A stretch of DNA of 64,000 nt from Escherichia coli (lineage in GTDB: Bacteria > Pseudomonadota > Gammaproteobacteria > Enterobacterales > Enterobacteriaceae): assembly GCF_001677475.2 (NCBI RefSeq), contig NZ_CP015229.1, one strand, 5' to 3'. A program made the position numbers and the translations under genes. Below, in pieces: positions 1 through 34,296 of the stretch (positions are counted from its first letter, which is position 1; each line of letters opens with the position of its first letter). The notes below the pieces were generated by a model that worked only from the letters and a program-made list of their open reading frames with translations, did no database searches and had not been told where the DNA came from.

Positions 1-1322
1 TATACATGTTGGCAGTTGGCCCACCGAGATCGGAAATTACGCCCGTAAAACCTGGAACGGTGTCGCGGATCGCTTCGATCTCATTGATGATCGAATCTTC
101 CGAACGGCTCTGAATAATGCGCCCTTCATGCTCGGTAATAGAACAGAAAGAACAGCCACCAAAGCAGCCACGCATAATGTTGACCGAGAAACGGATCATT
201 TCGTAAGCCGGAATACGAGCATTGCCATAGGCCGGATGCGGCACGCGCTTGTACGGCAGCGCAAAAACGCTGTCCATCTCTTCGGTAGAAAGCGGGATAG
301 CAGGCGGGTTGATCCACACATAGCGGTCGCCATGTTTTTGCATCAATGCGCGGGCGCAGCCTGGGTTAGTTTCGTGGTGCAGAATACGCGAAGCATGGGC
401 GTACAGCACTTTATCGCCCTTCACTTTCTCGAAAGAAGGCAGCAACACGTAGGTTTTTTCCCATGGTTTCGGGCGCGGCGGCTGCACAGTTACAGCTTTA
501 GCTTCCTGCTTTTTCGGGGCCACCGGTTTGTTATCCGCGCACGGCAGATCTTCGCCATACGGATGCGGGATTGGGTCGATTTTCCCTGGGGTATCAAGAC
601 GGGTGGAATCCACACCGCTCCAGCCAGGCAGCGCCTCTTTTACGATAATTGCGGTATTACGCACATCGCGGATTTCACTAATCGGCTCACCCATCGCCAG
701 ACGATGCGCCACCTCCACCAACGGACGCTCACCGTTACCGAACATCAGCATGTCGGCTTTCGAATCCACCAGCACGGAACGGCGCACGGTATCGGACCAG
801 TAATCATAATGCGCGGTACGGCGCAGACTAGCCTCAATACCGCCGAGGATCACCGGCACATCTTTCCACGCCTCTTTACAACGCTGGGTATAAACCAGTG
901 TGGCGCGATCCGGTCGCTTACCCGCGACGTTATCCGGCGTGTAGGCATCGTCATGACGTAAACGGCGATCGGCAGTGTAACGGTTGATCATCGAATCCAT
1001 GTTGCCAGCAGTAACACCAAAAAACAGATTCGGTTTACCCAGACGCATAAAGTCGTCTTTGCTGCTCCAGTCCGGCTGGGCGATGATCCCGACGCGAAAG
1101 CCCTGCGCTTCCAGCATACGACCGCAAATCGCCATCCCAAAGCTTGGGTGATCGACATACGCGTCGCCAGTAACCAAAATGATGTCGCAGCTATCCCAGC
1201 CAAGTTGATCCATCTCTTCACGAGACATCGGCAAAAACGGTGCCGGTCCAAAACAGGCGGCCCAGTACTGCGGCCAGGAGAACAGGTCGCGATCCGGTTG
1301 GATCAGGGAGATAGAGCTCATT
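1..1322 (-). CDS. ygiQ: Radical SAM protein YgiQ (UPF0313), N-terminal part only; gene runs off the window start
   Basis: Reverse-strand translation from 1322 reads [40 protein letters not shown]; open frame continues to position 1. Missing from the ORF track because it is truncated by the window edge. Confidence 0.8.
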
Positions 1323-1431
1323 TTGCTTCCAGAAATGATAAAAAAATAATCAAAGGCCGGGGATTATAAGCCGGAACGAAAGAGAAATCGAAAGGTATTC
1401 CATACTCGCCCTCCTCGGGCGAGTATGAAGA

Positions 1432-2844
1432 TTACGGTACCGGATTGACCAACAGTTGCCCAATCGAGCCACGGTCCGCCATTTCCAGCGTCTGACTGTT
1501 GAAGTAGAACGGGAAGTGCGCCCAGGAAGGCTGACCAAAATAAACAAGCAGCTCCACTTGTCCGTCAACCCAAACGGTATCTTTCCAGCCTCTGTCTTCC
1601 GGGAACGGCATCGCGCCATTCACGTTACGGATCTGGAACATCACGCCTTCAATATGGAACGCTTGCGGCTCGTCCGCGCGTACCGTCCAGCGTTCCCATG
1701 TTCCTTGCTGCGCGGTGACATCAATACGGTTGACGTCCCACAGCTGTCCATTAATACCCGGGTCATCACCCAGACTGATATCGCGACTGCGAATTGGCGA
1801 ACCAGCCATGATTTCAGTTGGCAGCAAGCGCATCGGAAGACTGTCTGTGACCAGCGGCAGAAGGCCGGTTGGGCGCAGCGTTAGCACCAGGGTAGAAACC
1901 AGAATGCTGGATGGCTCAAAGAAGCCACGAATACGATCAACAATGCTCGCCGCTTCGCCACAGGTGATCGACACTTCATCACCGTTGCTCATATCCACCA
2001 GAATCTCGCGGCGCTCGCCCGGTGCCAGCGAAAGTTGCTTCACCGATACAGGAGCAGGCAGGAATCCCTGATCGCCAGAAATCACATGTAACGGGCGACC
2101 ATCGCTCATCTGTAGTTGATAGCGACGAGAGTTCGACGCGTTCAGCAGTCGCAAGCGCACCCAGCCGCGCGAGACTTCAACGTACGGGCTTTGTACACCG
2201 TTAACCAGCAGCGTATCACCAACAAAGCCGCCGCTTCCCGGTTCGTTGTATTCTGGCGTACCAAAGTTATCCAGCCGTTTATCCTGGATAATGACCGGAA
2301 AATCATCCACACCATAATGGTTGGGGATAGGCAGCGACTTGCTGACTTCATCTTCCACCAGCCACATTCCGGCAAGGCCGTTATAGACCTGCTGAGCCGT
2401 GCGGTTGGGAGTATTGGCGTGATACCACAGAGTAGCTGCGTTCTGGCGAATAGGCAGTACGGGTGCCCAGTCAGCGTTTGGCGACATCATCCGTGCCGGA
2501 CCGCCCATCAGCGGGCCTGGTACCTGTAGCCCGGACACCGTCATTGAGACATTTTCTGTCAGGCGGTTGCTGTAAATAAGCTTAACATCGTCGCCTTTCC
2601 AGACGCGGATAGTCGGCCCCAGGTAACGACCATTGATTCCCCAAACCGACGCGCGTGTCCCTGGCGTAAATGACCAGTGCGCACGTTGTACAGTCATAAA
2701 CAGCGGTTGCCCACGGCGAGATTCAAGCAGCGGCGGAACGGGTAGCGGTTGCTGTTGCCCGGCTGCGCTGGCCTTCAGGGGAACAGCGCCTGCACAAAGT
2801 GCAATCCCCGATGCCTGAATGAACTGACGCCGACTGAGTGACAT
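1432..2844 (-). CDS. ftsP: Cell division protein FtsP (SufI), Tat-exported multicopper-oxidase-like
   Basis: 470 aa; N-terminal twin-arginine signal (SRRQFIQASG); position next to plsC/parC. Confidence 0.9.
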   Translation of the reverse strand: MSLSRRQFIQASGIALCAGAVPLKASAAGQQQPLPVPPLLESRRGQPLFMTVQRAHWSFTPGTRASVWGINGRYLGPTIRVWKGDDVKLIYSNRLTENVSMTVSGLQVPGPLMGGPARMMSPNADWAPVLPIRQNAATLWYHANTPNRTAQQVYNGLAGMWLVEDEVSKSLPIPNHYGVDDFPVIIQDKRLDNFGTPEYNEPGSGGFVGDTLLVNGVQSPYVEVSRGWVRLRLLNASNSRRYQLQMSDGRPLHVISGDQGFLPAPVSVKQLSLAPGERREILVDMSNGDEVSITCGEAASIVDRIRGFFEPSSILVSTLVLTLRPTGLLPLVTDSLPMRLLPTEIMAGSPIRSRDISLGDDPGINGQLWDVNRIDVTAQQGTWERWTVRADEPQAFHIEGVMFQIRNVNGAMPFPEDRGWKDTVWVDGQVELLVYFGQPSWAHFPFYFNSQTLEMADRGSIGQLLVNPVP

Positions 2845-2918
2845 ATTTGCTCCATGTAAAACTGGCTAAAGTAATACCGTGCAGGAAAGTGTTCCCCGCA
2901 AAAATACAGATTGCCGAC

Positions 2919-3656
2919 TTAAACTTTTCCGGCGGCTTCGCGCTCTGCGACTTCTTTATCGAGCTCGGCGATTTTTTGTTCCATTATCGAACGACAATGG
3001 GCAGCCAGCTCACGAACCTGATCTTTGCCATACTGACTGACGTCAATTGGCGGCAGCATTTCGACAATCACCAGACCGTTGTGCAGTCGATTAAGATTAA
3101 TCTTATTCGAAGTTGTAGAGACACACACGGGAATAATCGGGACGCCCGCCGCAATTGCCGCGTGAAATGCCCCGGTCTTGAACGGTAGCAGGCCGCGACC
3201 ACGGCTGCGGGTACCTTCCGGGAACATCCAGATGGAAATACGGCGTTTTTTGAAGTGATTCACTACTTCCGCAATAGTGCCGTGAGCTTTAGTGCGATTA
3301 TTTCTGTCGATCAATAAGTTGCCGGTTAACCAGTACAACTGCCCGAAGAAGGGGATCCACAGCAAGCTCTTTTTACCTACCGTCACCGTCGGCGGTTGCA
3401 CAATGTTCGATGCTGTCACCATGTCATAGTTGTTCTGGTGGTTAGCGATATAGATAGCATTGCCGTAGCTTTCAGCGTCTGCAGGTTTGCGGCACTCAAC
3501 TTTCAGGCCGAACAGCGGCGCAAGACGGCCAAACATATGCCCAAAGGTGGCCACATGTTTCGGGTTACGCGGGCTGAAAAGGCAGTAAATGGAGCCGAAT
3601 ACACAGACTAAGATGCTGTAAATCACGGTAATAATAAGACGAAAGATATATAGCAT
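2919..3656 (-). CDS. plsC: 1-acyl-sn-glycerol-3-phosphate acyltransferase
   Basis: 245 aa; NHQNNYD acyltransferase motif region; conserved position upstream of parC. Confidence 0.9.
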   Translation of the reverse strand: MLYIFRLIITVIYSILVCVFGSIYCLFSPRNPKHVATFGHMFGRLAPLFGLKVECRKPADAESYGNAIYIANHQNNYDMVTASNIVQPPTVTVGKKSLLWIPFFGQLYWLTGNLLIDRNNRTKAHGTIAEVVNHFKKRRISIWMFPEGTRSRGRGLLPFKTGAFHAAIAAGVPIIPVCVSTTSNKINLNRLHNGLVIVEMLPPIDVSQYGKDQVRELAAHCRSIMEQKIAELDKEVAEREAAGKV

Positions 3657-3888
3657 AACACCCTCTGAAGGTCTGAGAGACTGGCATTGTACGTCACCTG
3701 AAATCAGGTTAGGGCATTGTTAAAAGCCGCTCTCTGGAAAAGCGTATTGTTAATCGCAACGCATGAATAAACAACGGTTTCAAGGGAATTTTTATCGTTT
3801 CCGGGGGTTGAATACGCTGCCGGATGACGACTTAACGTTTCATCCGGCGTTCCTTGCAAGCGGGAGGAAACAGGCCCTCCCCGGCATA

Positions 3889-6147
3889 TTACTCTTCGCT
3901 ATCACCACTGCTGGCACGGCGAGGAGAGTCGATCTCAACACGATCGATACGCTGCAAACCGCGCATCAACGTACCGCGGCGTCCACGTTCGCCAGTGACT
4001 TTCTGTAGCTCTTCCGGACGCAGTTTAATTTTGCGTTTCCCAACATGAATGGTCAGCGTGCTTTGCGGCGGCAGAACGTACAGTTGCGCAAGACCATCTT
4101 CTCCACGCGCGGCTTCTGCCGATGGAATGTTGATAATCTTGTTGCCTTTGCCCTTCGACAGCTGCGGCAGATCGCTTACCGGGAACATCAACATACGGCC
4201 TGCCTGAGTGATTGCCAGCAGCATATCGGAAGCATCTTCAATCACCACCGGCGGCATAACATGGGCATTTTCCGGTAAGGTGATCAAAGCTTTACCTGCA
4301 CGGTTACGCGCCACCAGATCGTTAAAGGTGCAGACGAAACCGTAACCCGCATCGGAAGCCATCAGCAGTTTCTGATCGTCGCTTTCCATCAGCATATGGT
4401 CAACGGTCGCCCCAGGCGGCAACGTTAATTTGCCGGTGAGCGGTTCGCCCTGACCACGCGCCGACGGCAGCGTAATCGGGTCAATGGCATAGCTACGACC
4501 GGTGGAATCAACAAACACTACCGGTTGGTTGCTCTTACCTTTCACCGCCGCTTTGAAGCTATCACCCGCTTTATAATTCAGGCCCGGCGCGTCGATATCA
4601 TGGCCTTTAGCGCTGCGTACCCAGCCCATCTGCGACAGCACAATAGTGACAGGTTCAGACGGCAGCATGTCGTGCTCGCTCATCGCTTTCGCTTCTTCGC
4701 GTTCCTGCAACGGCGAACGACGATCGTCACCGTAGGCTTGCGCGTCTGCCTGCAGTTCTTTCTTCAGCAGGTTATTCATTTTACGCTCGGAAGCCAAAAT
4801 GCCCTGCAACTGGTCGCGCTCTTTTTCCAGCTCACTCTGCTCACCGCGAATCTTCATCTCTTCCAGTTTGGCAAGATGACGCAGTTTCAGTTCGAGGATC
4901 GCTTCCGCCTGGGTTTCCGTAAGGCCAAACCGCGACATCAGCGCCGGTTTCGGTTCATCTTCATTACGAATGATCTCAATCACTTCGTCGATATTGAGAA
5001 ACGCCACCAGCAAACCTTCGAGGATATGCAGGCGCTTGAGGACTTTCTCCAGACGATAGTTCAGTCGGCGGCGCACGGTATCGCGGCGGAACACCAGCCA
5101 TTCAGAGAGGATTTCCAGCAGGTTTTTCACCGCCGGACGACCATCCAGACCGATCATATTGAGATTAATGCGATAGCTCTTTTCCAGATCGGTGGTAGCG
5201 AAGAGGTGGTTCATCACCTGATCCATATCCACGCGGTTGGAACGCGGCACAATCACCAGACGGGTCGGGTTCTCGTGGTCAGATTCATCGCGCAGATCGT
5301 CAACCATCGGCAGCTTTTTGTTGCGCATTTGCGCAGCAATTTGCTCCAGTACGCGCGCACCTGAAACCTGATGCGGCAATGCGCTGATAACCACCGCACC
5401 ATCTTCTTTCTTCCACACCGCGCGCATACGCACTGAACCACGTCCGTTCTCGTAGATTTTACGGATCTCGGCGCGCGAAGTGATAATTTCCGCTTCAGTC
5501 GGATAATCCGGCCCCTGCACGATATCCAGCAGCTGATCGAGCGTGGTTTTCGGCTGGTCGATTAATGCGATTGCCGCCTGAGCCACTTCACGCAGGTTAT
5601 GCGGTGGAATATCGGTCGCCATGCCGACGGCAATACCGGTGGTACCGTTAAGCAAAATGTTTGGCAGACGGGCAGGTAGCATTTTCGGCTCCTGCAAAGT
5701 GCCGTCGAAGTTTGGTACCCAGTCAGCCGTCCCCTGCCCCAGCTCGCTCAATAGCAGCTCGGAATATTTCGACAACCGGGATTCGGTGTAACGCATTGCC
5801 GCGAACGATTTCGGATCGTCCGGCGCGCCCCAGTTCCCCTGACCATCAACCAGCGGATAACGGTAAGAGAACGGCTGCGCCATCAGGACCATCGCTTCAT
5901 AACAGGCGCTATCGCCGTGCGGATGGTATTTACCCAGTACGTCACCGACTGTACGGGCCGATTTTTTAAATTTGGCGCTGGCATTCAGGCCCAGCTCAGA
6001 CATCGCATACACAATGCGGCGCTGAACAGGTTTCAGACCATCACCAATAAACGGCAACGCACGGTCCATGATCACGTACATGGAGTAGTTTAAGTAGGCG
6101 TTTTCCGTAAATTCATGTAGCGCAAGGCGCTCTGCCATATCGCTCAT
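3889..6147 (-). CDS. parC: DNA topoisomerase IV subunit A
   Basis: 752 aa; GyrA/ParC N-terminal signature ([17 protein letters not shown]). Confidence 0.95.
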
Positions 6148-6284
6148 TAATTCTGATTCCTCAACTTATTCGCCAGCCTTCAAAGGGGCAATATTGCCGG
6201 AGATACTACATTATCTGCCGCGTCGAGTCACAGGAGATCAGCGTGAATAGCGCCGCCGGACGTGCTCCGACGGCGATAAAGGCA

Positions 6285-7892
6285 TCAATGTGCCTTGATA
6301 TACAACTCTTTGCTGTAGACATAATCCTGGGGATTATGCAGCGGAAAACCGCCAACGTAGGGTTTAAGCAGTTTGATTAACGGCTGATAGTAGATAGGAA
6401 TCAGCGGTGCCTGTTGGTTGATGATCACTTCTGCCTGCTGATACAACGCATTACGCTTTGTCGCATCAGTGATCTGCGTGGCCTGGTTTAGTAAGGCGTC
6501 ATACTGCGCATTTTTCCAGTGACCGACGTTTTCTTCACTATCGCTTTTGAGCGTGTTCAGGAAGCTGGAAGCATCATTGTACGTCGTATCCCACGACTGC
6601 CGAGACAGCATGAAATCACCGGCTCGTCGGGCATCAAGATAGGTTTTCCACTCCATTGTACGCAGCGTCACCTGTGCACCCAGCCATTTTTTCCATTCGG
6701 AAGACAACGCTATCGCGGTCTTTTCATGCAGATCGTACTTGTTGTAGAACAGCTCAAAGCGTAGCGGATGAGAGGCGTCGTATCCCGCCTGTTTCAGCAA
6801 GGCTTTTGCCATCGCGACGCGCTCACTCATTGGCTTTTGCAGTTCATCGAACGTCGTCGTGCTAAAGCCTTTTACCTCTGGCGGCGTCAGCGTGGTTGCG
6901 GGCGTTCTCAACCCCAGTACCTTTTGCGCAATAAGCTGTCGATCAACCGTAAGATATAGCGCCCGACGCACTCGCACATCGTTAAATGGCGGTTTCTCAA
7001 GGTTAAAGTTGTAATATTCGCTGTTCAGACGCGGGATAATTCGTAGCTCGCCAGGCAGTGATTTTTCAATGGCAGGAATTTGCTGCGCCGGAACCCAGGT
7101 GAGATCGACCTCTCCCGCGCGATAGCGGTTATAGCCGGTGACCGAATTATCCAGCGCCAGATACTCAACTTGTTGCAATACTGTATGTTGCGCATCGCGG
7201 TACTTTGGATTTTTGCGTGCAGTAATCTTTTCGTTAACTACCCACTGTTCAAGCACAAAGGCACCGTTGTAAACCATGTTCTCTGGCTTACTCCAGCTAT
7301 CGCCATGTTTAGCGATGACATGATGAGGAACCGGGAACAGCGTCGGCCAGGCGAGCATCGTCGTGAACCAAGGAACCGGCTGCTCAAGCGTAACTTCAAG
7401 AGTACGATCATCCGTCGCTTTGACACCCAGCGATGTAACATCTGCTTTACCCGCAACAATAGCCGCGGCATTGTTAATGTGCGCCTGTGCCAGATAGCCA
7501 GCAAAAGGGCTTGCCGTTTTCGGGTCAACCGCGCGCTGCCAGCCGAGGACAAAATCCTCTGCCGTCAAAGGCTGACCGTCTGACCACTGCAAACCGCTAC
7601 GCAGATGGAAAATATAGCGCTTGCCGCCGTCCAGTATCTCCCAGCGTTCAGCCTGAGCGGGCTGCACCTGGCCTTCACCGTCCATCCATACCAGACCTTC
7701 AAACAGATCCAGCACAATCTGCGCGGCAGTATTCTCCTCCACCTTTTGCGGGTCGAGCGTACCTGGGTCGCTATGATTGTTGTAACGAAAGACTTGTTGC
7801 GGGGCGAGCGGTGTGTTGGCGGGAACGTCAGCAGCGTAGAGAGGTGCCGCACTTACCAGGCTGACCAGCCATAATAAATTTCGCGTATACAT
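6285..7892 (-). CDS. ygiS: Periplasmic solute-binding protein of an ABC transporter (family 5, oligopeptide-type)
   Basis: ORF 6285-7955; likely start at the internal Met preceding a signal peptide (MYTRNLLWLVSLVSAAPLYA). Confidence 0.8.
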   Translation of the reverse strand: MYTRNLLWLVSLVSAAPLYAADVPANTPLAPQQVFRYNNHSDPGTLDPQKVEENTAAQIVLDLFEGLVWMDGEGQVQPAQAERWEILDGGKRYIFHLRSGLQWSDGQPLTAEDFVLGWQRAVDPKTASPFAGYLAQAHINNAAAIVAGKADVTSLGVKATDDRTLEVTLEQPVPWFTTMLAWPTLFPVPHHVIAKHGDSWSKPENMVYNGAFVLEQWVVNEKITARKNPKYRDAQHTVLQQVEYLALDNSVTGYNRYRAGEVDLTWVPAQQIPAIEKSLPGELRIIPRLNSEYYNFNLEKPPFNDVRVRRALYLTVDRQLIAQKVLGLRTPATTLTPPEVKGFSTTTFDELQKPMSERVAMAKALLKQAGYDASHPLRFELFYNKYDLHEKTAIALSSEWKKWLGAQVTLRTMEWKTYLDARRAGDFMLSRQSWDTTYNDASSFLNTLKSDSEENVGHWKNAQYDALLNQATQITDATKRNALYQQAEVIINQQAPLIPIYYQPLIKLLKPYVGGFPLHNPQDYVYSKELYIKAH

Positions 7893-8000
7893 GGTATTCC
7901 TTACCGGAGAAATTATAAGCCCAATAACAATACGCCTGTGGCATTGTTCGCTCAAACTTATCGCGAGTGATTTGGCTCACACTCCGGTAAAGATTCCCCA

Positions 8001-8483
8001 TCACGCTAACGGTACATAAACATCCGTTTCCAGTCGCTGCTCTGTCACCCCTTCGGCAAGATTGGTGTAGTGAAACAGAATCGGTGCTTTACGCATTTTC
8101 TCGCCGCTTGCAGGCAGCCAGTGGCGAATAATGCCCCATATCGTGTGTGAAATATCGTCCAGCTCGCCAACATGGCGGGTAACAGCATAACGCCCACCGG
8201 TAAGTTCGCCATTACTCACGCCATAACGATTATCGGGGATCGGTTCGCTAACGCTGCCGCAGATATCAAAGCGAAACGCTTCCGGTGCGGTGGTGGCAGG
8301 GTCGTCCCAGGCGACGCCAAAAGTCTGGCTTTGGTTAACAGGAGAAAGCCCCGTCTCTTTACGCCACATGATAAATTTCGCCACGCTGTAGTTGAGCAAC
8401 TCAGGGCTACAGCGGTGCGGCAACATCGCCACAGGGATTGATGGGAAATCGATAATATTTACATCCAGTGTCAGGTTTGTCAT
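8001..8483 (-). CDS. ygiV: GyrI-like small-molecule-binding domain protein / transcriptional regulator
   Basis: 160 aa; sequence and position between ygiS and ygiW. Confidence 0.7.
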   Translation of the reverse strand: MTNLTLDVNIIDFPSIPVAMLPHRCSPELLNYSVAKFIMWRKETGLSPVNQSQTFGVAWDDPATTAPEAFRFDICGSVSEPIPDNRYGVSNGELTGGRYAVTRHVGELDDISHTIWGIIRHWLPASGEKMRKAPILFHYTNLAEGVTEQRLETDVYVPLA

Positions 8484-8535
8484 TTTGCCTCCCTGCGAAA
8501 TTATTCCCGGGAACGCGTCCCGGGAGCGGTAACAA

Positions 8536-8928
8536 TTACGGATTTACTTTGCGGATCTGTTTGACGTCAATTTCAACAGAATTCCAGTCTTTATCGACTT
8601 CCCCCTGAATCTCAACCGTATCTTTCGGCGTCACCGTCACGCCGTTCCAGCGTTTGTGGTCGATATCAACATTGATAGTACCGCTGGCATCTTTGAACAC
8701 GTAGAGATCGTCAGAGATGCGTTCAACGATATTGCCGCGCAGGGTTACCCAGGTGTCGTCACGCAGGGATTTTGCGCTTTCTACAGTCGTTACGCTGCCA
8801 TTCGGCCCCTGGAATCCTCCGGCCTGACTTTGCGTTGCCGATGGGCCAGAAAAACCGCCCTGCTCTGCTGCCATCACCGGTGCGCTGCACAGGGCCATTA
8901 CTGCGATTACTGCTGCGAATTTTTTCAT
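8536..8928 (-). CDS. ygiW: Periplasmic OB-fold (BOF family) stress protein
   Basis: Signal peptide MKKFAAVIAVMALCSAPVMA; ATG at 8926-8928; divergent from qseBC. Confidence 0.75.
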   Translation of the reverse strand: MKKFAAVIAVMALCSAPVMAAEQGGFSGPSATQSQAGGFQGPNGSVTTVESAKSLRDDTWVTLRGNIVERISDDLYVFKDASGTINVDIDHKRWNGVTVTPKDTVEIQGEVDKDWNSVEIDVKQIRKVNP

Positions 8929-9079
8929 GTTTATTACTCCCTTTAATGTCTGTTTCCGAGCATTTAACAAGATAGTCCTTAACAACTTCTTAAGGGAAAA
9001 AAATAAAATTTAATGCTGTACAGAGCGCGTTACAACACGGTTTACTGGCAGCAAATACGGTTATCGCAGGGATGAAAAA

Positions 9080-9739
9080 ATGCGAATTTTACTGATAGAA
9101 GATGACATGCTGATTGGCGACGGCATCAAAACGGGCCTTAGTAAAATGGGTTTTAGCGTCGACTGGTTTACACAAGGTCGTCAGGGAAAAGAGGCGCTAT
9201 ACAGCGCACCTTATGATGCGGTGATCCTGGATTTAACCTTACCAGGCATGGATGGTCGCGATATTTTGCGCGAATGGCGAGAAAAAGGTCAGCGTGAGCC
9301 GGTATTGATCCTGACCGCGCGCGATGCGCTGGCGGAACGTGTAGAAGGGCTGCGTCTGGGAGCTGACGATTATCTGTGTAAACCTTTTGCGTTGATAGAA
9401 GTCGCCGCCAGGCTAGAAGCTCTGATGCGCCGAACCAACGGCCAGGCCAGCAACGAGCTGCGCCACGGCAACGTCATGCTCGACCCCGGCAAACGTATCG
9501 CCACACTGGCTGGCGAACCCTTAACGCTGAAACCAAAAGAATTTGCCCTGCTGGAATTACTGATGCGTAACGCTGGTCGGGTACTGCCGCGCAAACTGAT
9601 TGAAGAGAAACTGTATACCTGGGACGAAGAGGTCACCAGTAATGCCGTTGAAGTGCATGTGCATCATCTGCGACGCAAACTCGGCAGTGATTTTATTCGT
9701 ACCGTTCATGGTATTGGCTACACATTAGGTGAGAAATGA
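9080..9739 (+). CDS. qseB: Two-component response regulator QseB (OmpR family)
   Basis: 219 aa; receiver domain (MRILLIEDD) plus winged-helix C-terminus; 4-nt overlap with downstream kinase gene. Confidence 0.9.
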
Positions 9740-11085
9740 AATTTACCCAACGTCTTAGTCTGCGAGTCAGGCTGACGCTAATCTTTTTAATTCTGGCCTC
9801 GGTGACCTGGCTGCTTTCCAGCTTTGTCGCCTGGAAACAAACAACGGATAACGTCGATGAGTTGTTCGACACCCAACTGATGCTGTTTGCCAAACGGTTA
9901 AGTACGCTCGATCTCAACGAAATCAACGCGGCAGATCGCATGGCACAGACGCCAAATAAATTAAAACACGGTCATGTTGATGACGATGCGCTGACCTTTG
10001 CCATCTTTACCCACGACGGCAGAATGGTCCTTAACGATGGCGATAACGGAGAAGATATTCCCTATAGCTATCAGCGGGAAGGTTTTGCTGACGGGCAACT
10101 GGTCGGTGAAGACGATCCCTGGCGTTTTGTCTGGATGACCTCACCTGATGGCAAATATCGCATCGTTGTTGGTCAGGAATGGGAATACCGCGAAGACATG
10201 GCGCTGGCGATTGTTGCCGGGCAATTGATCCCGTGGCTGGTCGCACTGCCGATTATGTTAATCATCATGATGGTACTACTGGGTCGTGAACTCGCGCCGC
10301 TGAACAAACTGGCGCTGGCACTACGTATGCGTGACCCTGACTCGGAAAAACCACTAAACGCGACGGGCGTACCTAGCGAAGTGCGTCCACTGGTTGAGTC
10401 GTTGAATCAACTGTTCGCCCGCACACATGCGATGATGGTTCGTGAACGACGCTTTACCTCCGACGCAGCTCACGAACTACGTAGCCCGTTAACGGCGCTG
10501 AAAGTGCAAACCGAAGTTGCGCAGCTCTCTGACGATGATCCGCAGGCGCGGAAAAAAGCGCTGCTTCAATTACATTCCGGAATCGATCGCGCTACTCGTC
10601 TGGTTGATCAACTGCTCACGCTATCGCGGCTGGACTCACTGGATAACCTTCAGGACGTCGCGGAGATCCCGCTTGAAGATCTCCTGCAATCGTCGGTGAT
10701 GGATATTTACCACACGGCGCAGCAGGCGAAAATTGACGTGCGACTGACACTCAATGTCCAGGGCATCAAACGCACCGGACAACCGCTATTGCTAAGTTTG
10801 TTGGTGCGAAACCTTCTGGATAACGCCGTGCGTTACAGTCCACAGGGTAGCGTGGTAGACGTCACGCTGAATGCCGATAATTTCATCGTGAGGGATAACG
10901 GCCCCGGTGTGACGCCAGAGGCACTGGCGCGAATTGGCGAACGCTTCTATCGCCCACCCGGGCAAACCGCTACCGGCAGTGGACTTGGGCTATCGATTGT
11001 CCAGCGAATCGCCAAATTGCATGGCATGAATGTTGAGTTTGGGAATGCGGAACAAGGTGGATTTGAGGCGAAGGTAAGCTGGTAA
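9736..11085 (+). CDS. qseC: Sensor histidine kinase QseC
   Basis: 449 aa; two TM segments, H-box (AAHELRSPL), ATPase domain; translationally coupled to qseB. Confidence 0.9.
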
Positions 11086-11194
11086 GGGTAAGACTTTTGC
11101 TAAATTCGCAAAAGACTTTGCACATTTTGCTAATTTCACCGTACCGCTCTGTGACGTACTATAGTCGACAAACGTCTCACCTTGAGGTTAAAAA

Positions 11195-11776
11195 ATGAGC
11201 AACATCCTGATTATCAACGGCGCGAAAAAATTCGCCCACTCCAATGGTCAACTGAACGACACCCTGACCGAAGTCGCGGATGGCACACTGCGCGACCTCG
11301 GGCATGATGTCCGCATCGTTCGCGCCGACAGCGACTACGATGTCAAAGCGGAAGTACAAAACTTTCTCTGGGCTGATGTGGTGATCTGGCAGATGCCAGG
11401 CTGGTGGATGGGCGCGCCGTGGACAGTGAAAAAATACATTGATGATGTATTCACCGAAGGTCACGGGACTCTGTATGCCAGCGATGGTCGTACCCGCAAA
11501 GATCCGTCGAAAAAATACGGCTCCGGCGGCCTGGTACAGGGCAAAAAATATATGCTTTCTCTGACCTGGAACGCACCAATGGAAGCCTTCACCGAAAAAG
11601 ATCAGTTCTTCCACGGCGTTGGCGTTGACGGTGTGTATCTGCCGTTCCATAAAGCAAACCAATTCCTCGGTATGGAACCGCTGCCGACATTTATCGCTAA
11701 TGACGTGATAAAAATGCCTGATGTTCCCCGCTATACTGAAGAATATCGCAAGCATCTTGTGGAAATTTTTGGTTAA
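11195..11776 (+). CDS. mdaB: NADPH:quinone oxidoreductase MdaB
   Basis: 193 aa flavodoxin-like; MSNILIINGAKKFAHSNGQLN. Confidence 0.85.
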   Translation: MSNILIINGAKKFAHSNGQLNDTLTEVADGTLRDLGHDVRIVRADSDYDVKAEVQNFLWADVVIWQMPGWWMGAPWTVKKYIDDVFTEGHGTLYASDGRTRKDPSKKYGSGGLVQGKKYMLSLTWNAPMEAFTEKDQFFHGVGVDGVYLPFHKANQFLGMEPLPTFIANDVIKMPDVPRYTEEYRKHLVEIFG

Positions 11777-11806
11777 CTAGAGCTCAGGCTTTAGAAGGAG
11801 TTAACC

Positions 11807-12121
11807 ATGCTTACCGTAATCGCAGAAATCCGTACTCGTCCTGGTCAACATCACCGTCAGGCGGTATTGGATCAGTTTGCTAAAATCGTTCCAACCGTAC
11901 TGAAGGAAGAAGGTTGCCACGGCTATGCGCCGATGGTGGATTGCGCTGCTGGCGTGAGTTTCCAGTCTATGGCGCCGGACTCTATCGTGATGATTGAGCA
12001 GTGGGAAAGCATCGCGCATCTTGAAGCGCACTTGCAGACCCCGCACATGAAAGCGTACAGCGAGGCCGTAAAAGGCGATGTGCTGGAGATGAATATCCGC
12101 ATCCTGCAACCGGGGATTTAA
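11807..12121 (+). CDS. ygiN: Quinol monooxygenase YgiN (ABM domain)
   Basis: 104 aa; follows mdaB with RBS GGAG. Confidence 0.8.
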   Translation: MLTVIAEIRTRPGQHHRQAVLDQFAKIVPTVLKEEGCHGYAPMVDCAAGVSFQSMAPDSIVMIEQWESIAHLEAHLQTPHMKAYSEAVKGDVLEMNIRILQPGI

Positions 12122-12165
12122 CATTCCTGAAAAGAGGCCGGTGTTGCTACCGGCCTCAGGTCAGA

Positions 12166-13053
12166 TTAGCCATTCTTTCTTCCCGTTTTCAAACCCCGAT
12201 GGAAATCGTTAATTCGCTTAATGGTTTTAACCGCACGCTGCGGCATCGCGGAAGCCACCGACCAGACAATCATTTCCAGGCACAACAATACCGTACCATG
12301 TAGTGGCGTTTTCCCCTTTTCATCCCCGCGCGGAACATGAATCACGATACTGGCGTCTTTGCTAAAACGTGAATCCAGCGCGTTTGTCAGCAAAATAACA
12401 GGGATCCCCAGCCGCCTCGCCTCACGAAGCGTTGTCAGCCCTTCCCGGTGCGCAGATTTTTGCGCCATCATGATCAGAACATCGCCACGTTGAAGCGCGA
12501 TCAGTTGCTCGGCAAGGCCAATACCCGTACGGTTTAGTGCCGTGGCAGGCAAACCTATGCGGTTGAATAGTCGTGCGGTATAGTCCGCCAGAATACCCGA
12601 AGCGCCAATGCCAAAAATTGCGACTTGCCGTGCCTGCACCAACAACGCTACCGCTTGCGCAAGCGCGTGGCGGTTTTCAGGCTCTGACAGGACATTACAA
12701 GTATACAAATGCCCTTCAAGAACAAAGTCGATTGCGGTGTTAACATCGCTCGTCAAGTTACTCACCGTCGTAGACATCTTTTCGCTGGAACTAAGGGCTG
12801 GACCAAGCCACTGTTCCAGAGTGCGTCTCAGATCACGCAGCCCGGCAAACCCCAGAGCCTGTATAGCCCTGATAACTGTGGCATCGGAAGTGTTCAACGT
12901 GGCCGCAATTTCCATCGCCGTTTGCTCGAGTACCACTTCACGATGCTCATTAATGTAGCTTGCGACAGCTCTTAACCCAGGCGTTAACTGACTCGCGCGA
13001 GTGCGAAAACGCTCACCATAAATATCAACCCGCGTTTTGTCTTTCTGGATCAT
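12166..13053 (-). CDS. RpiR/MurR-family transcriptional regulator (HTH + SIS domain)
   Basis: 295 aa; N-terminal HTH and SIS-domain-like core; start codon overlaps stop of upstream binding-protein gene. Confidence 0.65.
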   Translation of the reverse strand: MIQKDKTRVDIYGERFRTRASQLTPGLRAVASYINEHREVVLEQTAMEIAATLNTSDATVIRAIQALGFAGLRDLRRTLEQWLGPALSSSEKMSTTVSNLTSDVNTAIDFVLEGHLYTCNVLSEPENRHALAQAVALLVQARQVAIFGIGASGILADYTARLFNRIGLPATALNRTGIGLAEQLIALQRGDVLIMMAQKSAHREGLTTLREARRLGIPVILLTNALDSRFSKDASIVIHVPRGDEKGKTPLHGTVLLCLEMIVWSVASAMPQRAVKTIKRINDFHRGLKTGRKNG

Positions 13054-13997
13054 TTAGCCTCCGGTAGAGGTCGTCCCGCAATTTGTGATTGTATCTGCGC
13101 AGCCATCAGCCCCAGAGATGCAAAGGAGTTAGAAATCGCCTCTTCACGAGAAATCAGCACATAGCGCCCGGAACGACAGGCCGTCAGAAACTGACACCAT
13201 CCCGGCATGACTTTTTCCATTGCTGCCAGCTCATCCTGAGGTTTACCACCGGTGTCACCGCGCCAGGTTGCAAAAACAAAATCGGCATCCAGTTCAGGTA
13301 AACGCTCTGCGCTCACATCCATTCGCCCACCTTCAGGAATGCTCTCAATCAGCGGCGGAAAGCGAAAACCAGCATCGCGTAATACCCGCCCCAGCGAATG
13401 ATAGCTATGCATCACATTAATTTTTCCCTGATTTGCCTGAATCACCGATACCGTTATTTTTTGGCTGTCCAGCGTCGCCTTCAGCGCATTGATTTGTGCC
13501 TGATAGCGGCGTTCAAGTATCGCCAGCTGCGACTGCGTTCCTGTAAGTTCTGCCAGCTTGCGGTAGATTTCTGGCGCGCCTCCTTTGAGATGATCAATGC
13601 TCACCGTGGGCGCAATTTTTTCCAGTTGTTCAATGGGCGTATTACGGGTCGGTTCTGTGATGATCAGGTCAGGCTTTGCCGCCACAATCGCTTCAATATC
13701 AATATCAGCGGTGCCAATAAAAGCGATCGATGAATTATCAAAGTCGACACCTGTCAATAACGCGCCTGATCGAATGAAATGGCTACCGTCAGGCCGGGTT
13801 CGCCCGTGGCTGGCGACAGGAGGTACACCGAGCTCAATCAGAGGAATAGTGATATCAAGATCGTGTAAAGAGACAATTCTCTTTGGATGAGCAGGAACAG
13901 TGACTTTGCGCCCTAAATCATCAGTAAAGACCTGAACAGGTTCTGTCGCGCGGGCAAAGAATGACAACAGTATCAGCAGAGAAAAAAATAAACGCAT
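13050..13997 (-). CDS. Periplasmic substrate-binding protein, siderophore/cobalamin type (FecB-like)
   Basis: ORF 13050-14060; probable start at Met preceding signal peptide MRLFFSLLILLSFFARA. Confidence 0.7.
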   Translation of the reverse strand: MRLFFSLLILLSFFARATEPVQVFTDDLGRKVTVPAHPKRIVSLHDLDITIPLIELGVPPVASHGRTRPDGSHFIRSGALLTGVDFDNSSIAFIGTADIDIEAIVAAKPDLIITEPTRNTPIEQLEKIAPTVSIDHLKGGAPEIYRKLAELTGTQSQLAILERRYQAQINALKATLDSQKITVSVIQANQGKINVMHSYHSLGRVLRDAGFRFPPLIESIPEGGRMDVSAERLPELDADFVFATWRGDTGGKPQDELAAMEKVMPGWCQFLTACRSGRYVLISREEAISNSFASLGLMAAQIQSQIAGRPLPEAK

Positions 13998-14007
13998 ATA
14001 ACTCCCA

Positions 14008-15057
14008 TTAAAAACTGTTCCTGCGCTGCCAGAGCAGTAGCAAAAAGAATGGTCCACCAATCAATGAAATAATGATTCCGGCAGGCAGTTGCAAAGGCAA
14101 AAAAGCCAAACGACCAATGCTATCCGCCAGGATGACTAACAACGCCCCCGATACGGCGCTCCCCAGCAGTAATGTCGTCTGCCCGCCACGTAGAATAAAA
14201 CGTGATATATGGGGTGCTATCAATCCGACAAAACCGATGTTACCAACACACGAAACGCAGACGGCTGTCAGGATTATTGGTGCGGCGACACGTAACAACG
14301 CCAGACGAGAACTATTCACCCCTAACCCGGTTGCAACCTGATGACCAAGCAGAGCGATATCCGCCGTCCTGGCGGTGAACAGCAATAAAAGAGCGGCTGG
14401 CAACATCCAACAGGCTGAAATACCGACTAACATCCAGTTAGCTGCATGCAGGCTTCCCGATAACCACATCAATGCAGTTTGTACATCTCGAACATCTGCA
14501 GTGGTCATAAATACACCGATACCGGCGGCGAAAAACCAGGAAACACCAATACCAATCAGAACAAATCGCGGGCGGGAAATATCGCGTGCACAAAAAATCA
14601 CGATTAAAGCCACCAACAAGCCACCAGCAAGACCAGCCACTGGACGCCAGAACATTCCCAGCATTGGAAACTGGAAGATCAGCCACAGCACCGCCACGCT
14701 ACATCCTTCTTTGACGCCGATTAAACCAGGATCGGCAAGGCCGTTACGCGCAATGGATTGCATCGCGGCCCCCGCCATACCTAACATGGCTCCGCATAGC
14801 AATGCCATGATGACTCTCGGCAAGCGAATATCCTGCACAATATAACGTGCGTCTGTGCTTACGTTTTCTGGAGCAAACAACGCTCGTCCTACTTCCGATG
14901 CCGGGACAGAAAAAGAACCATGCATCAGACCGAATATCAGTATTCCAACCGCAAACAGAAACAGCCCACCAAGCAACACCAGATTTTTAGGGCGTACCAG
15001 TGTCGAAAACTTACCAACACGTAGTGGACGTAGCCCGACGTTCATTATCCGACTCAT
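14008..15057 (-). CDS. ABC transporter permease, FecCD family
   Basis: 349 aa polytopic membrane protein. Confidence 0.75.
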   Translation of the reverse strand: MSRIMNVGLRPLRVGKFSTLVRPKNLVLLGGLFLFAVGILIFGLMHGSFSVPASEVGRALFAPENVSTDARYIVQDIRLPRVIMALLCGAMLGMAGAAMQSIARNGLADPGLIGVKEGCSVAVLWLIFQFPMLGMFWRPVAGLAGGLLVALIVIFCARDISRPRFVLIGIGVSWFFAAGIGVFMTTADVRDVQTALMWLSGSLHAANWMLVGISACWMLPAALLLLFTARTADIALLGHQVATGLGVNSSRLALLRVAAPIILTAVCVSCVGNIGFVGLIAPHISRFILRGGQTTLLLGSAVSGALLVILADSIGRLAFLPLQLPAGIIISLIGGPFFLLLLWQRRNSF

Positions 15058-16037
15058 TTGAACATCCTCGTCGCCATAATGACAAAAACAGGCGCACCAA
15101 CTAACGCCGTCATGACACCGGTCGCTAACTCATGGGGCGTGAAAAGCGTCCGAGCAATAATATCTGCCAGTAATAACAAAAGCGCGCCGACACAAGCTGA
15201 AAGAGGGAGCAGAACGCGCAGATCCGCTGATACCAGACGCCTGACAATCTGCGGTACTAGCAGGCCGACAAAACCAATGGGGCCAGCAATCGATACGGCT
15301 GCGCCACAGAGCAACGCGATCGCAAGCAGAGTGAATGTTCGCGTGCGGAGTACCGAGACGCCCAGCCCCTGCGCCATGCGATCACCCAGTGCCAACATGT
15401 TAAGAGAGGGCGCAAGGTAAATGGCTAACACAACCCCCCCCAGAGAAAACCAGGCGGACGTACCCAGCGTCGCCCAATCCTGCCCCGCTAAATCACCTGC
15501 TAGCCATGTCCGCATCGCCAGCAGTGTTTGTTCGTCAAGAATCAGGATTGCAGCCGTTATTGAGGACACGAACGCCGATAGCGCCACGCCGCATAAAGTA
15601 ACTTTCATTGGCGTTAACCCTGAACGCCCTGCGGAGGAAAGCAGCAATATCAACAGGAACAATAACGCGCCCCCCGTAGATGCCAGCAGTGGGCGTCCAA
15701 CCGGAAAGGCCAGTCCAAGCGCACTGGCGGCAACGACAGCAAGAGCGGCTCCGGCATTTAAGCCTAAAATATGTGGCTCCCCCAATGGGTTACGAATGAC
15801 AGCCTGCAACAAAGCACCAGCAACTCCAAGAGAAGCACCGGTAAGCAATGCTGCCGCTAAACGCGGCAAACGGAGTCTTACAATTACGTTGTGATCGAAG
15901 TTTTGCGGTTCAAAATGAAGAAATGCCTGCAACACCGTTTGTGGTGCAATAAATCGGGCACCAATCCCTGGATATACCACGCATCCCACCAGCAGTAAGG
16001 CGAGGAAAATTACAGTAACCAGCCCTGTGCGCATCAT
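15054..16037 (-). CDS. ABC transporter permease, FecCD family
   Basis: 327 aa polytopic membrane protein; overlaps neighbouring genes by 4 nt. Confidence 0.75.
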   Translation of the reverse strand: MMRTGLVTVIFLALLLVGCVVYPGIGARFIAPQTVLQAFLHFEPQNFDHNVIVRLRLPRLAAALLTGASLGVAGALLQAVIRNPLGEPHILGLNAGAALAVVAASALGLAFPVGRPLLASTGGALLFLLILLLSSAGRSGLTPMKVTLCGVALSAFVSSITAAILILDEQTLLAMRTWLAGDLAGQDWATLGTSAWFSLGGVVLAIYLAPSLNMLALGDRMAQGLGVSVLRTRTFTLLAIALLCGAAVSIAGPIGFVGLLVPQIVRRLVSADLRVLLPLSACVGALLLLLADIIARTLFTPHELATGVMTALVGAPVFVIMATRMFK

Positions 16038-16843
16038 ACTTTTTCTACACCACGAAACGGCATGAAGAACGGCTTTCCCGTCAGAGGATTTATTGATGCG
16101 TGAACATCAACGTCAAAGACAGCTTTTACCAGCTCAGGCGTGCAATGCTCCCCCTCATTCAACACACGCACCACTTTCCCCTGGCGTAAAAATATCAACG
16201 TATCGCCATAATTGACGGCAAAATTCAGATCATGCAACACCACGACGACTGTACGCCCGTGATGACGCGTTAAGTCATGTAATAACTCAAGAATTTCAAC
16301 CTGATAACGTAAATCAAGCCAGGTTGTGGGTTCATCCAGCAGGATATAAGGCGTCTTTTGCGCCAACACCATCGCAATCCAGCAACGCTGGCGCTGCCCA
16401 CCAGAGAGTTTTTCAACCGGTAAATGTGCAAACTCCTGCGTACCGGTTAATTTCAGGGCCTCTTCTACCGCCTGCTCGTCGGCGTCGCTCCATTGACGTA
16501 TGAAATTTTGCCAGGGAAAACGCCCACGCGACACCAGTTCATAAACGGTTAAGCCCTCCGGCAATAATGGCGACTGCGGCAAGATCCCAAGTCTACGGGA
16601 TAACGCTTTCGTTGGTTGCTCGTGAATCGCTTTACCATCCAGCAATATAGAGCCGCCCATAGGCTGCAAGATACGTGCAATGGTGCTGAGCAACGTCGAC
16701 TTTCCACAGCCGTTTGCCCCAACCAGAACGGTCATTTTTTCTGTGGGAACGGAGAAAGAAACACCATCAACAATGATCTTCTTGTGATACCCGGCAGAAA
16801 CATTGTCGAGGATCAGCCCCTGCCCTTTTGCGTTATGTGCCAC
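16034..16843 (-). CDS. ABC transporter ATP-binding protein (FecE-like)
   Basis: 269 aa; Walker A GANGCGKST, signature LSGGQRQR, Walker B ILLDEP. Confidence 0.8.
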   Translation of the reverse strand: MAHNAKGQGLILDNVSAGYHKKIIVDGVSFSVPTEKMTVLVGANGCGKSTLLSTIARILQPMGGSILLDGKAIHEQPTKALSRRLGILPQSPLLPEGLTVYELVSRGRFPWQNFIRQWSDADEQAVEEALKLTGTQEFAHLPVEKLSGGQRQRCWIAMVLAQKTPYILLDEPTTWLDLRYQVEILELLHDLTRHHGRTVVVVLHDLNFAVNYGDTLIFLRQGKVVRVLNEGEHCTPELVKAVFDVDVHASINPLTGKPFFMPFRGVEKV

Positions 16844-17216
16844 GTGTACGCCAACTTAATCAAAGACAAACAAAAATAAAACTCATTCTCTTTTGAGAGT
16901 TTGACGCCACAAAATGTAGTAGTCAAGAAGTTAAAATCCATACAAAAACAAGGTAAATAACAGGTGAAATATTTTTAAAGATAAAAATAAAATCATTAAA
17001 TATTAATAAATTACCATCAATTAAATTGCATTAACCTCTCATAAAAACACATGTAGCAATTTTTTGTTATTTCTCATTTACTACTACATTACCGCATGGT
17101 TGAATGATTCTCAATTACATATCCGATGGTGAAATAACAAACGGATAGTGCTTAGTGAGCAACAAGAAACAATTTTCACTCACGACAATCCGTGAGTTTT
17201 TGGGATAACAGACTAA

Positions 17217-19358
17217 ATGGCTAAGTTCACACCTTCATTCTCAGGAATCAAAGGTCGGGCGCTCTTTTCACTGCTCTTTGCAGCACCGATGATTCATGCA
17301 ACCGACACTGCAACGACCAAAGATGGCGAAACAATCACTGTTACAGCGGATGCAAATACCGCAACTGAGGCGACCGATGGTTATCAACCTCTGAGCACCT
17401 CCACGGCGACATTAACCGATATGCCGATGCTGGATATCCCGCAAGTGGTCAATACGGTTAGCGATCAGGTTCTGGAAAATCAGAATGCGACGACGCTGGA
17501 TGAGGCACTTTATAACGTCAGTAACGTGGTACAGACCAATACATTAGGCGGAACTCAGGACGCCTTTGTACGTCGTGGGTTTGGTGCTAACCGGGATGGC
17601 TCCATCCTGACCAACGGTCTGCGAACCGTACTTCCTCGCAGCTTCAACGCTGCAACAGAACGTGTGGAAGTGCTAAAAGGCCCGGCCTCCACGCTGTATG
17701 GCATTCTTGATCCTGGCGGACTGATTAACGTCGTGACAAAGCGCCCGGAAAAAACATTCCATGGTTCTGTATCAGCCACGTCCTCCAGTTTTGGCGGAGG
17801 CACTGGGCAACTGGATATCACAGGTCCCATTGAAGGCACTCAGCTGGCATACCGCCTGACGGGGGAAGTGCAGGATGAAGATTACTGGCGGAATTTCGGT
17901 AAAGAGCGCAGCACATTTATTGCCCCATCACTCACCTGGTTTGGTGATAATGCAACAGTAACCATGCTCTATTCACATCGGGATTATAAAACGCCGTTCG
18001 ATCGTGGAACGATTTTCGACCTTACGACGAAACAGCCCGTAAACGTTGATCGAAAAATACGTTTCGACGAACCGTTTAATATTACAGATGGTCAGTCCGA
18101 TCTGGCGCAACTCAACGCAGAATATCATCTCAATAGCCAGTGGACAGCGCGCTTTGATTACAGCTACAGCCAGGATAAATACAGCGATAATCAGGCTCGT
18201 GTTACCGCGTATGATGCAACGACAGGAACGCTGACACGGCGTGTTGATGCAACTCAGGGATCTACCCAGCGTATGCATTCTACTCGTGCGGATCTACAAG
18301 GGAATGTTGATATTGCTGGATTCTATAATGAGATTCTGGGTGGGGTGTCATATGAATATTATGATCTTCTGCGGACAGATATGATCCGCTGTAAAAACGC
18401 TAAAGATTTCAATATCTACAACCCTGTTTATGGCAATACCAGCAAATGCACAACGGTCTCGGCGTCGGACAGCGATCAGACGATCAAACAAGAGAGCTAC
18501 TCAGCATATGCGCAAGATGCGCTCTATCTGACCGATAACTGGATTGCCGTCGCTGGGATCCGCTATCAGTATTACACGCAGTATGCGGGTAAAGGCCGTC
18601 CTTTTAATGTCAATACTGACAGCCGCGATGAACAATGGACGCCCAAACTGGGGTTGGTCTACAAACTGACGCCATCGGTATCCTTATTTGCCAATTATTC
18701 GCAAACATTTATGCCGCAATCGTCAATTGCCAGCTACATTGGCGATCTTCCACCGGAATCATCTAATGCTTACGAAGTCGGGGCAAAAGTCGAGCTGTTC
18801 GATGGTATAACCGCAGATATTGCGCTGTTTGATATCCATAAACGTAACGTGTTGTATACCGAAAGTATTGGTGATGAAACCATCGCCAAAACGGCAGGCC
18901 GCGTTCGTTCAAGAGGGGTAGAAGTCGACCTTGCGGGAGCATTAACTGAAAACATTAATATCATTGCCAGCTACGGCTATACCGATGCTAAGGTTCTGGA
19001 AGATCCTGATTATGCAGGGAAACCATTGCCGAATGTTCCTCGTCATACCGGTTCGCTATTCCTGACCTATAACATTCATAACATGCCAGGCAATAACACA
19101 CTGACGTTTGGCGGTGGTGGACATGGCGTAAGCCGTCGTTCGGCAACCAATGGGGCTGACTATTATCTGCCAGGCTATTTCGTTGCCGATGCCTTCGCCG
19201 CATACAAAATGAAATTGCAGTATCCGGTCACACTGCAATTAAACGTCAAAAACCTATTTGATAAAACGTATTACACCTCTTCCATCGCCACAAATAATCT
19301 GGGGAATCAGATTGGCGATCCGCGTGAAGTGCAATTCACGGTGAAAATGGAATTTTGA
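17217..19358 (+). CDS. TonB-dependent outer-membrane receptor
   Basis: 713 aa; signal peptide, TonB-box-like ETITVTA, plug domain, C-terminal aromatic residue (ends MEF); divergent from the ABC operon across an AT-rich 370-bp region. Confidence 0.8.
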   Translation: MAKFTPSFSGIKGRALFSLLFAAPMIHATDTATTKDGETITVTADANTATEATDGYQPLSTSTATLTDMPMLDIPQVVNTVSDQVLENQNATTLDEALYNVSNVVQTNTLGGTQDAFVRRGFGANRDGSILTNGLRTVLPRSFNAATERVEVLKGPASTLYGILDPGGLINVVTKRPEKTFHGSVSATSSSFGGGTGQLDITGPIEGTQLAYRLTGEVQDEDYWRNFGKERSTFIAPSLTWFGDNATVTMLYSHRDYKTPFDRGTIFDLTTKQPVNVDRKIRFDEPFNITDGQSDLAQLNAEYHLNSQWTARFDYSYSQDKYSDNQARVTAYDATTGTLTRRVDATQGSTQRMHSTRADLQGNVDIAGFYNEILGGVSYEYYDLLRTDMIRCKNAKDFNIYNPVYGNTSKCTTVSASDSDQTIKQESYSAYAQDALYLTDNWIAVAGIRYQYYTQYAGKGRPFNVNTDSRDEQWTPKLGLVYKLTPSVSLFANYSQTFMPQSSIASYIGDLPPESSNAYEVGAKVELFDGITADIALFDIHKRNVLYTESIGDETIAKTAGRVRSRGVEVDLAGALTENINIIASYGYTDAKVLEDPDYAGKPLPNVPRHTGSLFLTYNIHNMPGNNTLTFGGGGHGVSRRSATNGADYYLPGYFVADAFAAYKMKLQYPVTLQLNVKNLFDKTYYTSSIATNNLGNQIGDPREVQFTVKMEF

Positions 19359-19359
19359 T

Positions 19360-19400
19360 CAAAAAAGCCCGGTATACACTTGTATACCGGGCTATGTTTT
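19360..19400. terminator. Bidirectional hairpin terminator between receptor gene and parE
   Basis: Stem-loop AGCCCGGTATACACTTGTATACCGGGCT flanked by A-run and T-rich run. Confidence 0.55.
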
Positions 19401-19421
19401 ATTCTTCTGGCGGGAGGATTA

Positions 19422-21317
<1,896 letters not shown>

Positions 21318-30757: not shown

Positions 30758-31057
30758 ATGATTGACCCGAAAAAAATTGAGCAAATCGCTCGCCAGGTTC
30801 ACGAATCAATGCCTAAAGGAATCAGGGAGTTCGGGGAAGATGTGGAGAAAAAAATCCGCCAAACCCTACAAGCACAGCTGACGCGTCTCGATCTGGTGAG
30901 CCGCGAAGAATTCGACGTACAGACGCAAGTCCTGTTACGGACTCGTGAAAAACTAGCTTTACTGGAGCAGCGCATCAGTGAACTGGAAGCGCGCAATAAT
31001 TCGGTAGCAGATCTTCAATCTCCTCCGGCTATCCCGCCTATTGATAAAGCAGAATAA
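30758..31057 (+). CDS. ubiK: Ubiquinone biosynthesis accessory factor UbiK (YqiC)
   Basis: Start at ATG 30758 ([16 protein letters not shown]); coiled-coil small protein. Confidence 0.75.
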
Positions 31058-31065
31058 AGCAACAC

Positions 31066-33878: not shown

Positions 33879-34039
33879 ACCCTCTTCTAGGAATAATCCC
33901 TGGCCCAAAAAGCCGGGGATTTTTTATATCTGCGTTCCGCTAAAAAGTGTAAATGATCAGGTTGTTGCAGCGTTTTGCGTGACTGCTCGGGGAAGGCAAA
34001 ACTGCATCAGAGAAAGCATTGCGCGGGGTCTGGCGCTCA

Positions 34040-34190
34040 TCAACAATCGGGGAGTCAGTAAGGGGCTGAAACGGGAAAGCCCCTCCCGAAGAAGGGGCCT
34101 TATAGAAGGAAAGGGTTATGATGAAGTTCGTCATCATACTGATTGTGTTGTTACTGTTAAGTTTCCCGACTTACTAACAACTCATCAGAG
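34040..34190 (-). ncRNA. Sib-type antisense sRNA (antitoxin) overlapping the ibs ORF; boundaries approximate
   Basis: Inferred from the ibs ORF and flanking hairpins; ends cannot be fixed from sequence alone. Confidence 0.4.
34118..34177 (+). CDS. Ibs-type type I toxin peptide (19 aa, MMKFVIILIVLLLLSFPTY)
   Basis: Short hydrophobic ORF with upstream GGAAAGGG RBS; hallmark of ibs/sib loci in the yqiK-hldE intergenic region. Confidence 0.65.
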   Translation: MMKFVIILIVLLLLSFPTY

Positions 34191-34296
34191 GGGGGAGAAA
34201 TCCTCCCTTACCCTTGTTCCTTTACTTTAGGTTGAAAAAAAAACAGCGTCAATAGATCTGCCTGCTACGAAGCGAGATCTGTGAAGCGCTTTCCGG

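Follow-up and report, generated by a model that had tools for sequence, protein, structure and literature searches.

An mqsRA-free ygiS-ygiV junction in Escherichia coli: the unoccupied, probably ancestral form of the K-12 toxin-antitoxin site

The window analysed here is a stretch of 64,000 nucleotides (64 kb) of Escherichia coli DNA in which ygiS and ygiV are direct neighbours (Table 1). Gene identities were assigned with NCBIfam and Pfam models and by synteny with annotated RefSeq genomes. The product of ygiS matched its family model over the whole length (1-535/535), above the curated cut-off of 1098 bits, and is 99.4% identical to K-12 YgiS at the amino acid level. The gene starts at an ATG at 7892 and the stop codon of ygiV occupies 8001-8003. 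A first-pass annotation of this DNA had put the gap between the two genes at 50-110 bp. The larger figure agrees with the distance measured from this ATG, while the value of about 50 bp stems from a TTG at 7955, the start of a longer mechanically called ORF that is supported neither by the family model nor by the RefSeq annotation of syntenic strains. It had also reported no ORFs between the genes, which is right in substance. Two mechanical ORFs overlap the spacer (7891-8019, plus strand, 42 aa; 7828-8004, minus strand, 58 aa), and both were rejected as small genes, since neither matches Pfam. A stop codon cuts the 42-aa frame short in three relatives, namely CFSAN018748, E. whittamii and SCPM-O-B-8794. 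The spacer presumably holds the leader of ygiS.

Table 1. Features of the ygiS-ygiV region, in coordinates of the window
Feature	Position	Strand	Description
parC	3889-6147	-	DNA topoisomerase IV subunit A (context); TIGR01062 parC_Gneg, 1425.7 bits; syntenic with K-12
ygiS	6285-7892	-	periplasmic ABC-transporter substrate-binding protein, 535 aa; NCBIfam PRK09755, 1287.9 bits
ygiV-ygiS spacer	7893-8000	-	108 bp; aligned to K-12 and two other empty-site strains
spacer inverted repeat, 3' arm	7893-7909	-	17 nt, 82% complementary; overlaps ygiS Shine-Dalgarno region (UAAGGAAUACC-AUG)
spacer inverted repeat, 5' arm	7982-7998	-	immediately downstream of ygiV stop
TTCCC (coding strand GGGAA)	7994-7998		5 bp that the ~922-bp mqsRA cassette replaces in K-12
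ygiV	8001-8483	-	GyrI-like domain protein, 160 aa; Pfam PF06445, E = 3.4e-36; annotated ygiV in syntenic genomes
ygiW	8536-8928	-	OB-fold stress protein (context); TIGR00156, 219 bits; 100% amino acid identity to K-12 (130 aa)
qseB-qseC	9080-11085	+	two-component system (context); NF007663 QseB, 468 bits; synteny

In the MqsR/MqsA type II system, the antitoxin gene mqsA lies directly downstream of the toxin gene, and its product combines a zinc-binding N-terminal domain with an HTH. Neither gene was found. The ORFs of the spacer matched neither the Pfam model of the mqsR toxin (about 98 aa, PF15723 MqsR_toxin) nor that of the mqsA antitoxin (131 aa, PF15731 MqsA_antitoxin), the K-12 controls scoring E = 5.5e-35 and E = 7.2e-56, respectively. 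In tblastn searches of all 64 kb, K-12 MqsR and MqsA had no homologue (best E = 0.83 and 0.57), and blastn with the 922-bp K-12 cassette matched nothing over the same 64 kb. The operator palindrome ACCT-N3-AGGT, present in two copies upstream of mqsR in K-12, is absent from the ygiS-ygiV site; its one match in the window, at 19966 inside parE, is at chance level (0.57 expected). No cassette remnants (operator palindromes, terminator or gene fragments) were found in the spacer. The pair is thus missing between ygiS and ygiV, as the first-pass annotation had proposed, and the homologues elsewhere in the window that could have overturned that reading do not exist.

The locus was compared with its K-12 counterpart, ygiS-mqsA-mqsR-ygiV (b3020-b3023). 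The K-12 order given in the first-pass annotation is correct, and all four genes lie on one strand (K-12 annotation; table in PMC5120126). Both genomes have parC, ygiS, ygiV, ygiW and qseBC in the same order and orientation, with flanks 98-99% identical, but the TTCCC of the window corresponds to about 922 bp in K-12. In the alignment, 1-7993 and 7999-11085 of the window fall on either side of the cassette. Against K-12 (DH10B), the match is gapless over 4600-7993 (99.2%, 28 mismatches in 3,394 bp) and again over 7999-10071 (98.3%, 36 mismatches in 2,073 bp). The K-12 segment comprises the mqsA terminator, mqsA, mqsR and a 204-bp operator-promoter region with two ACCTAAAAGGT palindromes. It begins 2 nt downstream of the ygiV stop codon and has a GC content of 41%, against 52-53% in ygiS and ygiV. 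Neither a target-site duplication nor flanking inverted repeats were present at the K-12 cassette ends, and the direct repeats or microhomologies found there are short and at chance level, supporting no mechanism. The 3' end of mqsA weakly resembles that of ygiV (CCGTTAAT.TAATGGAAA vs CCGTTAGCGTGATGGGGA). On these alignments the change is better seen as an exchange, with the cassette taking the place of 5 bp, than as a clean insertion, and the spacer at 7893-8000 is the unoccupied form of the K-12 mqsRA site.

The arrangements were counted directly in 5,426 complete E. coli genomes. The cassette is present in 2,299 of them (42%), always on the chromosome and with at least 99% identity in all carriers, whereas the flanks vary between 95 and 99%. 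Contiguous ygiS and ygiV, as in the window, were found in 1,754 (32%), and in a further 1,354 (25%) mqsRA is missing and 236 bp stand in place of most of ygiS. Together these make 5,407 genomes, nearly the whole set. One or the other of the two mqsRA-free arrangements is found in 57% of the complete genomes, and mqsRA is missing from 58%. The earlier statement that this strain lacks the pair at its usual site therefore holds for the K-12 position, but the word usual is K-12-centred, since the cassette occupies that position in only 42%. In the empty allele, the ygiV stop and the ygiS start are contiguous and about 108-113 bp apart, and the window agrees with this in spacing as well as in its junction, GGTAAAGA-TTCCC-CATCACGC. 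An identical junction was read in two unrelated strains, CFSAN061770 with an empty site and 2012C-4227 with ygiS deleted. Strains of the empty-site haplotype such as CFSAN061770 and CFSAN018748 also share the 108-bp spacer, but the window is only 98.3-98.7% identical to them overall. The ygiS-deleted haplotype (1,354 genomes, e.g. 2012C-4227) has the TTCCC junction beside ygiV and no mqsRA, but there the counterpart of window 6327-7870, most of ygiS, is swapped for 236 bp of unrelated DNA, while ygiS in the window is intact. In strain 2012C-4227 this replacement lies at 2765-3000 of the retrieved locus. In one other genome, strain 203740 (NZ_CP025913.1, 417609-419388), the annotation places an IS1 transposase inside the mqsRA match and lists mqsR twice, which suggests that mqsR is split by IS1.

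Related species were scanned with YgiV, using one genome per GTDB species, and five Escherichia loci outside the main E. coli cluster were obtained: E. albertii, E. whittamii, Escherichia sp. E1V33, Escherichia sp. MOD1-EC7003 and SCPM-O-B-8794. In all five of these non-coli representatives, MqsR and MqsA were absent from the 3-5 kb downstream of ygiV. An intact ygiS begins 111-113 bp after ygiV in E. albertii, E. whittamii and SCPM-O-B-8794, and the spacers of these three are collinear with the window spacer from end to end. Between ygiV and parC, E1V33 and MOD1-EC7003 have only fragments of ygiS. The outgroup state also includes the filler GGGA or GGGAA directly after the ygiV stop, which was observed in E. 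albertii, E. whittamii and SCPM-O-B-8794 and is lost or absent in K-12. A deletion in place could not regenerate this filler, and the empty site is therefore read as ancestral and K-12 as derived. We consider it very probable that the window carries an unoccupied allele of the ancestral type and that mqsRA of K-12 is a derived, horizontally acquired insertion.

The near-identity of the cassette across its carriers, its low GC content and the existence of MqsR-family pairs on plasmids suggest, by inference, that it was gained horizontally in one event, and relatively recently. Pairs of the MqsR/MqsA family with 60-68% identity were found on plasmids of Rahnella, Rouxiella, Pectobacterium, Burkholderia and others. 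Among the plasmid records of the MqsR family, 30 of 73 are conjugative, such as pRAHAQ02, where the pair lies next to ardA. The cassette of the E. coli type had no homologue in the phage collection, and within the complete E. coli genome set it was not found on any record labelled plasmid. In PLSDB there are two E. coli matches, NZ_MG591698.1 and NZ_CP141089.1, and both were rejected as plasmid carriers. The first (353 kb) carries the chromosomal order parC-ygiS-mqsA-mqsR-ygiV-ygiW-qseBC-ygiZ and the second is 4.9 Mb long; they appear to be mislabelled or misassembled. On this reading mqsRA is not a core E. coli pair but a self-contained low-GC cassette of about 0.92 kb with operator-promoter, mqsR, mqsA and terminator. 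In the history proposed here, it would have inserted once, 2 nt past the ygiV stop and in exchange for 5 bp, in an ancestor shared by some E. coli strains, K-12 among them. In the lineage of the window nothing would have been deleted in place, and ygiV would be followed by the native, structured ygiS leader and then by ygiS.

Other histories were weighed against this one. The window could descend from a lineage that carried mqsRA and then took the empty allele back from DNA of an mqsRA-free strain, through homologous recombination that crossed over close to the junction. In favour of this, the left flank with ygiS resembles K-12 (28 mismatches in 3,394 bp), and the ygiV side does so less (36 in 2,073 bp) and is somewhat closer there to the empty-site strain CFSAN061770. 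By sequence comparison, this contrast between a K-12-like ygiS and a less K-12-like ygiV side leaves room for a recombinational history at the junction. However, it is slight and of a kind usual in the mosaic genomes of E. coli, the window has no positive trace of a former cassette, and it is not near any one haplotype, being at most 98.7% identical to any complete genome. We regard secondary loss as unlikely. Among the 5,426 complete genomes, the highest identity is 98.7% for window positions 1-20000 and 98.5% for the core genes from bacA to mug (42200-54500), and the window seems to come from a lineage without a complete genome labelled E. coli in the collection. A public draft, GCA_019140065.1, is 100% identical to it over 7.6 kb with the same gene order, and an exact-protein look-up placed identical YgiS on contigs in about 60 blocks of the collection.

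The strain could also have mqsRA elsewhere, on the chromosome or on a plasmid beyond the 64-kb window. This is very improbable. The window itself has no copy, and once the empty-site and ygiS-deleted genomes are set aside, 2,318 are left, nearly all of them taken up by the 2,299 carriers, which leaves almost no room in E. coli for mqsRA at a second site. Moreover, no carrier among the 5,426 genomes is labelled plasmid, and the two PLSDB records of E. coli are unconvincing. A deletion of mqsRA in place from a K-12-like ancestor has the K-12-like ygiS allele in its favour and nothing else; it is effectively refuted, because it cannot recreate TTCCC/GGGAA, which is missing from K-12 but present in E. 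albertii, E. whittamii and SCPM-O-B-8794, and because the same junction is found in 1,754 genomes and in the ygiS-deleted haplotype. An assembly artefact that collapsed the region is refuted by the occurrence of the junction in 1,754 complete genomes and in the independent, 100% identical draft.

With the unoccupied ancestral-type allele as the preferred reading, the spacer itself may be considered. Folded as minus-strand RNA (7885-8003), it gives a long predicted hairpin (-41.9 kcal/mol; z = -4.78 relative to shuffled sequences). In a 12-bp closing stem (UCUUUACCGGAG / CUCCGGUAAGGA), the sequence after the ygiV stop is predicted to pair with the Shine-Dalgarno region of ygiS. In K-12 all 12 bp of this stem are preserved, with the cassette lying directly against its 5' foot. 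The closing stem is retained in other Escherichia species (E. albertii and E. whittamii) with wobble changes only. Across six Escherichia sequences, none of the 38 pairs has a compensatory change, and three G-U wobble changes fall in the outer and adjacent stems; the hairpin therefore stays a prediction. A scan of 7700-8200 matched no Rfam family, a sigma-70 promoter scan found nothing, and only a weak terminator-like hairpin came up, at 7944-7932. From these foldings one could suppose that the spacer (about 108 nt) acts in cis as a regulatory leader whose closing stem sequesters the ygiS Shine-Dalgarno, and that the translation of ygiS, or its coupling to upstream transcription, could differ with and without mqsRA. 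We consider this role unlikely. If true, it may be relevant to the contested claims that deleting mqsRA affects ygiS and deoxycholate tolerance.

The empty site is a real, ordinary and common polymorphism, and variable presence of mqsRA and ygiS has already been published. Type II toxin-antitoxin systems belong to the accessory genome, and no TA system is common to MG1655, W, EDL933 and UTI89 (PMC7167474). Studies cited in that review, as it reports them, describe an uneven distribution of TA modules among phylogroups and their horizontal transfer. The B2 strain NRG857c has no MqsRA (PMC7232551). In a pan-genome table of mastitis- versus commensal-associated genes, which lists mqsA, mqsR and ygiS (PMC11390585), the paired fractions are about 0.27 and 0.64 for mqsA/mqsR and 0.33 and 0.69 for ygiS. 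As a small self-contained intergenic module with presence/absence polymorphism in the core genome, the cassette resembles other type II TA cassettes that sit on the chromosome between core genes in a subset of E. coli strains (Ramisetty & Santhosh 2016; Fiedoruk et al. 2015; as cited in PMC7167474 and PMC5120126), and, as far as the citing papers describe them, it shares with these a low GC content and plasmid-borne relatives. Unlike the 'minimal' modules of Ramisetty & Santhosh 2016 and Fiedoruk et al. 2015, as summarised there, it has its own terminator. K-12 should not be taken as the reference for the species at this site. Since mqsRA, which ranks among the best-studied chromosomal toxin-antitoxin pairs, is missing from 58% of complete E. 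coli genomes and from all five other Escherichia representatives, no physiological role proposed for it can hold across the species. A precise junction map may help those who build or interpret mqsRA deletions, because polar effects of such deletions on ygiS are debated (PMC6918082).

Several other differences from K-12 were noted in the window. At 11086-11090 it is without the K-12 gene ygiZ (about 590 bp, between qseC and mdaB), and at 30989-31060, between ubiK and glgS, it is without the ygiL-yqiGHI fimbrial operon (about 6.6 kb in K-12, including IS2). A segment of about 360 bp at 33896-34252 aligns with about 96% identity to two adjacent K-12 positions near two type I toxin genes of the Ibs family (one of them ibsE), which indicates a difference in repeat copy number or arrangement. 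Between ygiN and parE the window has a 7.3-kb cluster (12122-19425) that K-12 does not have. Its products are a MurR/RpiR regulator, a TonB-dependent siderophore receptor and an iron-siderophore ABC transporter made up of a binding protein, two FecCD permeases and an ATPase. The cluster is common to pig ETEC/O139:H1 strains such as CFSAN018748, which resembles the window both in this cluster and in the absence of ygiZ. A siderophore permease that is frameshifted in CFSAN018748 is a full-length ORF in the window (15054-16037). Finally, an island at 54476-64000 stands in place of the K-12 nfeF/nfeR/aer region, directly following a tRNA gene (54476-54551; anticodon CAT) whose K-12 equivalent is annotated as tRNA-Ile. 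Its best match covers only 71% of it. Genes for integrase, primase, small terminase subunit, major capsid protein and head-tail connector are found in the annotated E. coli regions that match the island, which suggests a capsid-encoding phage satellite or a small prophage.
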